Shown here: one piece after another, positions 1 to 304 of the stretch
How positions within the stretch are numbered: position 1 is the first letter of the stretch
Layout of the letters: the number at the start of each line of letters is the position of its first letter
Sequence record: AH001323.2
Origin: a phage
Strand: one strand, 5' to 3'
DNA length: 304 nucleotides
Program-made: the position numbers and the translations under genes
Notes under the pieces: generated by a model
The model's input: the letters and a program-made list of their open reading frames with translations, nothing else
Told to the model about the DNA's origin: nothing
Databases searched by the model: none

Positions 1-1
1 A

Positions 2-91
2 TTGGCTATTGAGCGGCGCACGAAAAACGCGAAAGCGTTTCACGATAAATGCGAAAACTTTAGCTGGATGGTGAGTGGTATCACGAGATAA
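2..91 (+). CDS. 3' end of an unidentified ORF, 5'-truncated by the window start; 29 sense codons then TAA
   Basis: Frame 2 is open from position 2 to TAA at 89-91, reading LAIERRTKNAKAFHDKCENFSWMVSGITR*. The + strand is purine-rich (62%), as expected for a sense strand. No homolog recognised. Frame 3 (3-71) and a minus-strand frame (43-141) are also open, so the frame and strand are not secure. Confidence 0.3.
   Translation: MAIERRTKNAKAFHDKCENFSWMVSGITR
19..56. repeat. two imperfect 16-bp direct repeats, CACGAAAAACGCGAAA (19-34) and CACGATAAATGCGAAA (41-56), 14/16 identical, 22-bp period
   Basis: Position-by-position alignment gives mismatches only at repeat positions 6 (A/T) and 10 (C/T). 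A 22-bp period is not a multiple of 3, so this is a DNA-level repeat rather than a repeated peptide. Confidence 0.6.
25..40. repeat. perfect inverted repeat AAACGC-GAAA-GCGTTT (6-bp stem, 4-nt GAAA loop), possible hairpin or dyad binding site
   Basis: GCGTTT (35-40) is the exact reverse complement of AAACGC (25-30). It is preceded by an A5 run (23-27, partly in the stem) and ends in T3, so on the minus strand it reads as hairpin plus T5. Confidence 0.5.
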
Positions 92-93
92 CG

Positions 94-150
94 ATGAACG
101 CGATTAAGCGAGGTGAAACACGAGGCTGTATTTACGGCAAAACNCGNAAA
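94..150 (+). CDS. 5' end of an unidentified ORF starting at ATG 94 and running into the assembly gap
   Basis: ATG at 94-96 is the first start codon in frame 1 after the in-frame TAG at 61-63. A weak Shine-Dalgarno-like GAGA lies at 85-88, 5 nt upstream. The frame is open to the gap, reading MNAIKRGETRGCIYGKTRK; codons ACN (142-144) and CGN (145-147) are unambiguous Thr and Arg despite the N. It sits 2 nt after the stop of the upstream ORF. No homolog recognised. Confidence 0.3.
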
Positions 151-250
151 NNNNNNNNNNNNNNNNNNNNNNNNNNNNNNNNNNNNNNNNNNNNNNNNNN
201 NNNNNNNNNNNNNNNNNNNNNNNNNNNNNNNNNNNNNNNNNNNNNNNNNN
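151..250. other. assembly or scaffold gap: 100 consecutive N, true length unknown
   Basis: An uninterrupted run of exactly 100 N, preceded by isolated ambiguous calls at 144 and 147, typical of a degraded contig end joined by a fixed-size placeholder. Confidence 0.9.
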
Positions 251-304
251 TCTGGAAGAAAAAGCAGTCAATTAATACATCGGTTTCATTTCGAAGCGCG
301 AGCT

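Follow-up and report, generated by a model that had tools for sequence, protein, structure and literature searches.

What do two direct repeats, set on a period of 22 nt, do in a short piece of phage DNA? The window, that is, the whole stretch of 304 nucleotides from sequence record AH001323.2, carries the 16-mers CACGAAAAACGCGAAA (positions 19–34) and CACGATAAATGCGAAA (positions 41–56), which are identical at 14 of 16 positions. The preliminary description, made from the letters, likened them to replication iterons or repressor operators. The repeats are almost certainly the cores of R1 and R2, the abutting 22-bp binding sites of the transposase MuA at the right end (attR) of phage Mu. This R1–R2 array is already known and belongs to textbook biology. 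The features of the window are collected in Table 1.

Table 1. Features of the 304-nt window, with the corresponding positions of phage Mu
Feature	Positions	Strand	Remarks
Non-Mu flanking DNA (attggctat)	1–9		Match to Mu stops here; outside the phage end
Terminal TG	10–11	−	CA-3′ on the Mu strand; point of MuA nicking and joining
Right-end terminal Mu segment (attR)	10–65	−	Mu 36661–36717, with one T fewer in the terminal ...CTTCA
MuA site R1, CGGCGCACGAAAAACGCGAAAG	14–35	+	Identical to Mu R1; holds the first 16-mer
MuA site R2, CGTTTCACGATAAATGCGAAAA	36–57	+	Identical to Mu R2; abuts R1; holds the second 16-mer
AGCT (AluI) junction	62–65		Four bases common to the terminal fragment and the flipped internal fragment
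3′ part of mom	62–150	+	Mu 36403 to ~36492; sense; inverted versus R1–R2 relative to native Mu
Run of exactly 100 N	151–250		Gap of estimated length; colinear Mu stretch ~118 nt
Homologue of MuA site R3, CGGTTTCATTTCGAAGCGCGAGC versus Mu TGTTTCATTTGAAGCGCGAAAGC	281–303	+	One C inserted and two A's missing
AGCT (AluI) at the window end	301–304		Mu 36661–36664

The repeat pair

The pair and its period were confirmed by direct comparison. A direct, non-overlapping pair of 16-mers with at least 14 of 16 identities arose in seven of 1000 dinucleotide-preserving shuffles of bases 1–143 (P ~0.007), and the earlier estimate of a chance well under 1 in 100 is hence roughly right. The window reads ...TGAGCGGCG CACGAAAAACGCGAAA GCGTTT CACGATAAATGCGAAA AC..., and the true repeat unit has a length of 22 bp, the two units abutting each other: positions 12–33 and 34–55 agree at 17 of 22 positions. 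This value was reached by adjacent 22-mers in none of 2000 shuffles, the best shuffle yielding 16. Tandem Repeats Finder gave no report on the window, as expected for an array of two copies.

A degenerate third copy had been suggested at positions 82–97 with about 10 of 16 identities. This 16-mer, CACGAGATAACGATGA, actually agrees with either copy at 8 of 16 positions, which is chance level, and was rejected: it lies inside the coding sequence of mom, and a weight matrix of six Mu sites places the region at background (−3.8 versus a null median of −2.7, the null being the best site of each shuffle). The best alternative 16-mer, at positions 90–105, features 11 of 16 identities, a value equalled or beaten in 137 of 2000 shuffles.

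A coding origin of the repeats was rejected as well. The overlapping open reading frame (positions 2–91; 29 amino acids; TTG start) spans the rearrangement junction of the window and is spurious. A repeated peptide is not the explanation since the terminal right-end bases of native Mu carry no annotated gene, mom ending at 36602.

R1 and R2 of the Mu right end

Positions 12–65 of the window are 100% identical, over 54 nt, to the reverse complement of Mu NC_000929 36661–36714, and a BLAST search against phage records yields matches to Escherichia phage Mu, SfMu, D108, and Mu-like Yersinia phages. R1 and R2 have the same orientation, abut each other at 22 bp, and lie a few bases from the terminal CA, with a tip spacing 1 nt shorter than that of Mu.

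The six Mu sites—L1, L2, and L3 at the left end and R1, R2, and the inverted R3 at the right end—were aligned on a CGAAA anchor, in which R1 and R2 correspond to window positions 14–36 and 36–58. In the D108 GenBank record, the two homologous positions are annotated as binding sites of the transposase by their homology to the Mu consensus YMyNwRAARYRCGAAAR. This consensus is matched exactly at positions 19–35 and with one mismatch at positions 41–57; elsewhere in the window it has no match at up to four mismatches. R1 scores 24.7 in the six-site matrix versus a null 99th percentile of 9.1, a circular value because of R1 being part of the matrix. With R1 left out, its score drops to 1.7 (null median, −2.1; 95th percentile, 6.1). 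Because of this poor score, the assignment of R1 rests on its identity with Mu and not on the motif. R2 scores 12.1 with a matrix lacking both R1 and R2 (null 99th percentile, 11.2) and 10.0 with a matrix consisting of L1–L3 only (null 95th percentile, 7.1).

The right end of Mu (attR, NC_000929 ~36640–36717) shares with the window the identical, abutting R1 and R2, the adjacent terminal CA, and the vicinity of mom and of an R3 homologue. It differs from the window in three respects: the window lacks one T at the tip, carries the mom/R3 AluI fragment in inverted orientation, and has an R3 with indels. All three most likely stem from faults in the record. The right end of SfMu features the same layout, and its R1–R2 is identical to that of the window. 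D108 has this layout too, with the RAARYRCGAAAR cores kept and two transposase-binding sites annotated in its record. However, R1 of D108 differs at one base, its R2 is much diverged (GTTCAAATAAAATACGAAAAC) with the RAAR..CGAAAA core kept, and its mom is separated from the end by an additional gene, gp56. In type, the window belongs with Mu and SfMu.

The end sites of MuA have been characterized since the 1980s and are sold as a reagent. Each Mu end carries three MuA sites, and MuA binds each of these as a monomer and bends the DNA by 80 to 90° (PMC3145075). According to the literature, the monomer contacts each site via its Iβ and Iγ subdomains, and R1 and R2 alone, approximately 50 bp, are enough for fully active transpososomes in vitro. 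MuA is known to bind an R1–R2 sequence identical to the one in the window and to use it for cleavage and strand transfer (PMC5961161, PMC1475752, PMC4005685). Papers print this exact string as a "Mu right-end adaptor" for work with MuA (PMC4005685) and, in a derived form, in PMC5517011. Binding and cleavage by MuA at the copy in the window are predicted from this identical sequence. The 22-bp period would reflect two adjoining transposase monomers, side by side at the tip of the element, and the MuA complex would nick the terminal CA (the complement of positions 10–11) and join the end to the target with a 5-bp stagger. Mu transposition leads to a 5-bp target duplication (PMC1475752). The MuA gene and the left end are both absent from these 304 bases.

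The preliminary description was right in its general idea that the sites are tandem and helically phased, bind a phage protein, and are not a coding repeat. The classes it named were wrong, the sequence being the R1–R2 of MuA by identity with Mu. The probability that the phased repeats are the target of a Rep-type initiator or of a repressor, which would control replication or transcription, is virtually nil. A repeat pair with a period of 22 bp, roughly two helical turns, would suit such a protein, and Mu replicates by transposition from its transposase-bound ends, so that the sites are indirectly tied to replication. However, the identity with Mu attR over 54 nt is identity with a characterized transposase site, and no sigma-70-like promoter was found in the window. 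The search for an adjacent rep, initiator, or repressor gene, which had been proposed as a check, leads in native Mu to mom as the neighbor. The last Mu gene is located upstream of the sites, no initiator gene occurs in the final 1 kb of Mu, and the gene of the Mu repressor lies at the opposite, left end. The preliminary description had also held that a lack of further copies would speak against its proposal. Such copies are nearly lacking, only the diverged R3 homologue at positions 281–303 being present. This stands against iterons and not against protein binding since two sites per end, R1 and R2, suffice for MuA.

Replication iterons, repeats of ~19 to 22 bp bound by Rep, are likewise direct, helically phased, and occupied by one protein monomer each, a likeness that is a functional analogy only. 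They serve a replication initiator, usually come in at least three copies, are accompanied by an AT-rich unwinding region and a rep gene, and are not located at the tip of a mobile element. The array described here has none of these traits, with only two good copies present and the third at chance level. The end sites of Tn7 bound by TnsB, a related DDE transposase, are also multiple sites of ~22 bp at the ends of the element, described as "beads on a string" (PMC9308760). They differ from R1–R2 in sequence, number, and spacing and have no sequence relationship to the window. A motif with the look of an iteron can be an end-binding array of a transposase, and the two can be told apart by asking whether a mobile element ends at the repeats. 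Beyond a correct annotation, the R1–R2 finding adds little.

A terminator-like hairpin followed by a T-run (CGTGAAACGCTTTCGCG TTTTT) lies at positions 28–44 on the minus strand, which is the Mu sense strand, at the boundary of R1 and R2. R1 contributes its 3′ half to this hairpin and R2 its 5′ half, and in native Mu it is located downstream of mom. The fold of positions 10–65 has a z-score of −0.96, which is no better than that of shuffles, and an Rfam scan of the window at E values up to 1 yielded no family.

The element tip and the flipped AluI fragment

The role of the terminal CA in Mu transposition is established. If the window stems from a real insertion, positions 5–9, directly outside this terminus, would be one copy of the 5-bp target duplication, as judged by the biology of Mu. 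At the tip itself, one T is missing: Mu reads GCCGCTTCA (CTTCA) versus GCCGCTCA (CTCA) in the complement of the window, and this shortens the spacing from R1 to the cleavage site by the 1 nt noted above. Positions 10–18 of the window read TGAGCGGCG versus TGAAGCGGCG in nine of nine natural copies from IMG/VR, and the shortened terminus, TGAGCGGCGCACG..., had no match in viral or metagenome contigs.

A search of IMG/VR with the 40-nt R1–R2 string yielded 20 loci: nine natural ends of the Mu type and 11 adapter-like ones. Eight of the nine natural loci were compared further, and L014 holds a second, cut copy. In all eight, the end is followed by TTTAGCT and the inverted R3, and the sequence is colinear with the last 700 nt of Mu at 96 to 98% identity. 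Outside of TGAAGCGGCG–R1–R2, the eight loci have six different flanks (three loci share one), and this lack of conservation marks the boundary of the element. Because the search pattern fixed R1–R2, the IMG/VR loci say nothing on the conservation of the sites themselves; the unbiased comparison in this respect is D108. The native 47-mer including TTTAGCT had no match in 185,579 species-representative genomes (one per species), and positions 1–143 of the window were matched in 67 of 5,426 complete Escherichia coli genomes. Ends of the Mu type, absent from the species representatives and present in some E. coli, are hence a strain-level and not a species-level feature. The locus L014 (IMGVR_UViG_2690316161_000025) carries two Mu right-end copies in the same orientation approximately 8 kb apart (4461–5160 and 12581–13165), the second one being truncated where the locus ends. 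They may stem from tandem prophages, from a rearrangement mediated by Mu, or from an effect of assembly.

Inward of the terminal segment, the window continues with mom, a DNA modification gene. Positions 62–137 are 94.8% identical to Mu mom (36403–36479) on the plus strand. The first 54 nt past the junction agree fully with Mu; beyond them, mismatches and indels build up, mom goes out of frame after base 126 through a 1-nt deletion, and single Ns occur at positions 144 and 147. The Mu stretch opposite the following gap would hold the stop codon of mom. On the far side of the gap, positions 255–301 match the R3 region of Mu (36615–36659) at 91.5% on the plus strand, and positions 251–304 contain three indels. 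At the positions in which the window differs, Mu, SfMu, D108, and YpM_3 agree with each other within the part of the mom segment that was compared. The 100-N gap, the single Ns, the frameshift, and the indels reflect a low-quality read or an estimated gap and not divergence.

In native Mu, R3 lies inverted just inside R2 and is followed by the 3′ end of mom, which reads towards the end of the phage; the window departs from this order. Here, R3 is approximately 225 nt away and points in the same direction as R1 and R2, opposite to native Mu. R3 is dispensable for transposition (PMC3145075). The tetranucleotide AGCT occurs in Mu at 36403 and 36661, with none between, and in the window at the junction and as the last four bases. 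With AGCT at both limits, positions 62–304 correspond to exactly one AluI-bounded fragment (262 bp, Mu 36403–36664), flipped relative to the terminal fragment. The junction GCGAAAACTTTAGCTGGATGG had no exact match in genome, viral, and metagenome contigs, and among E. coli genomes, phages, and plasmids no record covers at least 80% of bases 1–143. Neither the flipped arrangement nor the shortened terminus was seen in any of the collections searched, and both are hence most likely artefacts of the record. A restriction fragment may have been misoriented, or ligated in this orientation in a clone, in a sequence of low quality. The rise of errors with the distance from both AluI ends, which reads of end-labelled fragments would be expected to show, holds for positions 62–150 but not cleanly for positions 251–304, and hence the explanation by a flipped fragment rests mainly on the two AGCT breakpoints.

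It is very unlikely that the flipped arrangement is real DNA, be it a Mu right end, of natural or engineered origin, in which the 262-bp segment is inverted, or else a small element with two inverted R1–R2 arms. The window does stop exactly where the second inverted R1–R2 arm would begin, at the AGCT of positions 301–304, and a contig break is plausible there. In addition, substrates with two right ends are transposition-competent (PMC5961161, PMC3362531). However, the Mu right end has just one pair of consecutive AGCT (AluI) sites, and both breakpoints fall on this pair, which points to the handling of fragments in vitro, and the junction is met in none of the collections scanned. The colinearity of eight of eight natural loci with Mu and the faults of the record, from the gap of 100 N where ~118 nt are expected to the single Ns, the indels, and the frameshifted mom, likewise argue against real DNA. 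An inverted mom–R3 derivative, or a miniature two-arm element mobilized by MuA in trans, is very unlikely indeed; if true, a transposable phage would have given rise to a natural, MITE-like descendant.

Mu ends as sequencing adapters

The same 50-bp R1–R2 is used in commercial and synthetic Mu R-ends, namely for in vitro transposition and in nanopore rapid adapters (PMC4005685, PMC5961161). That the sites of the window are the adapter residue of a MuA-based library kit, and not phage DNA, is extremely unlikely. Streptomyces, Borrelia, and E. coli have "finished" plasmids with many 100% matches to positions 12–59 of the window that are of the adapter type, in which the 50-bp end leads into a 24-nt tag and then GGTTAAACACCC. 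The 11 adapter-type matches among the 20 of IMG/VR lie at contig ends and lack the tag. However, Mu R-end adapters run into the tag or a GGTTAAAC tail, whereas the window runs into native Mu: GCGAAAAC is followed by TTTAGCT, as in the phage, with no adapter tail, and the Mu sequences of mom and R3 are present. An adapter origin of the window was rejected because native Mu sequence runs on past the 50-bp end.

The 50-bp Mu end is scattered as adapter residue through "finished" assemblies and viral contigs and should not be read as a Mu prophage without a check of its flanks. The layout of this end plus tag is that of MuA-based nanopore rapid adapters left in assemblies. The "complete" plasmid records that carry the 50-bp Mu end come from Streptomyces, Borrelia miyamotoi, and E. 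coli, and adapter-type ends without tag occur at contig ends of one IMG/VR metagenome (3300045125). Records of the adapter type are L006 (NZ_CP120993.1, 1–130), L007 (NZ_CP157161.1, ~55006–55100), and L008 (NZ_CP150064.1, ~6975–7060), and further such loci are L010, L011, L013, L015, L016, L018, L020, L022, L024, L025, L027, and L028. In L007 and L008, the Mu end is internal to a circular record.
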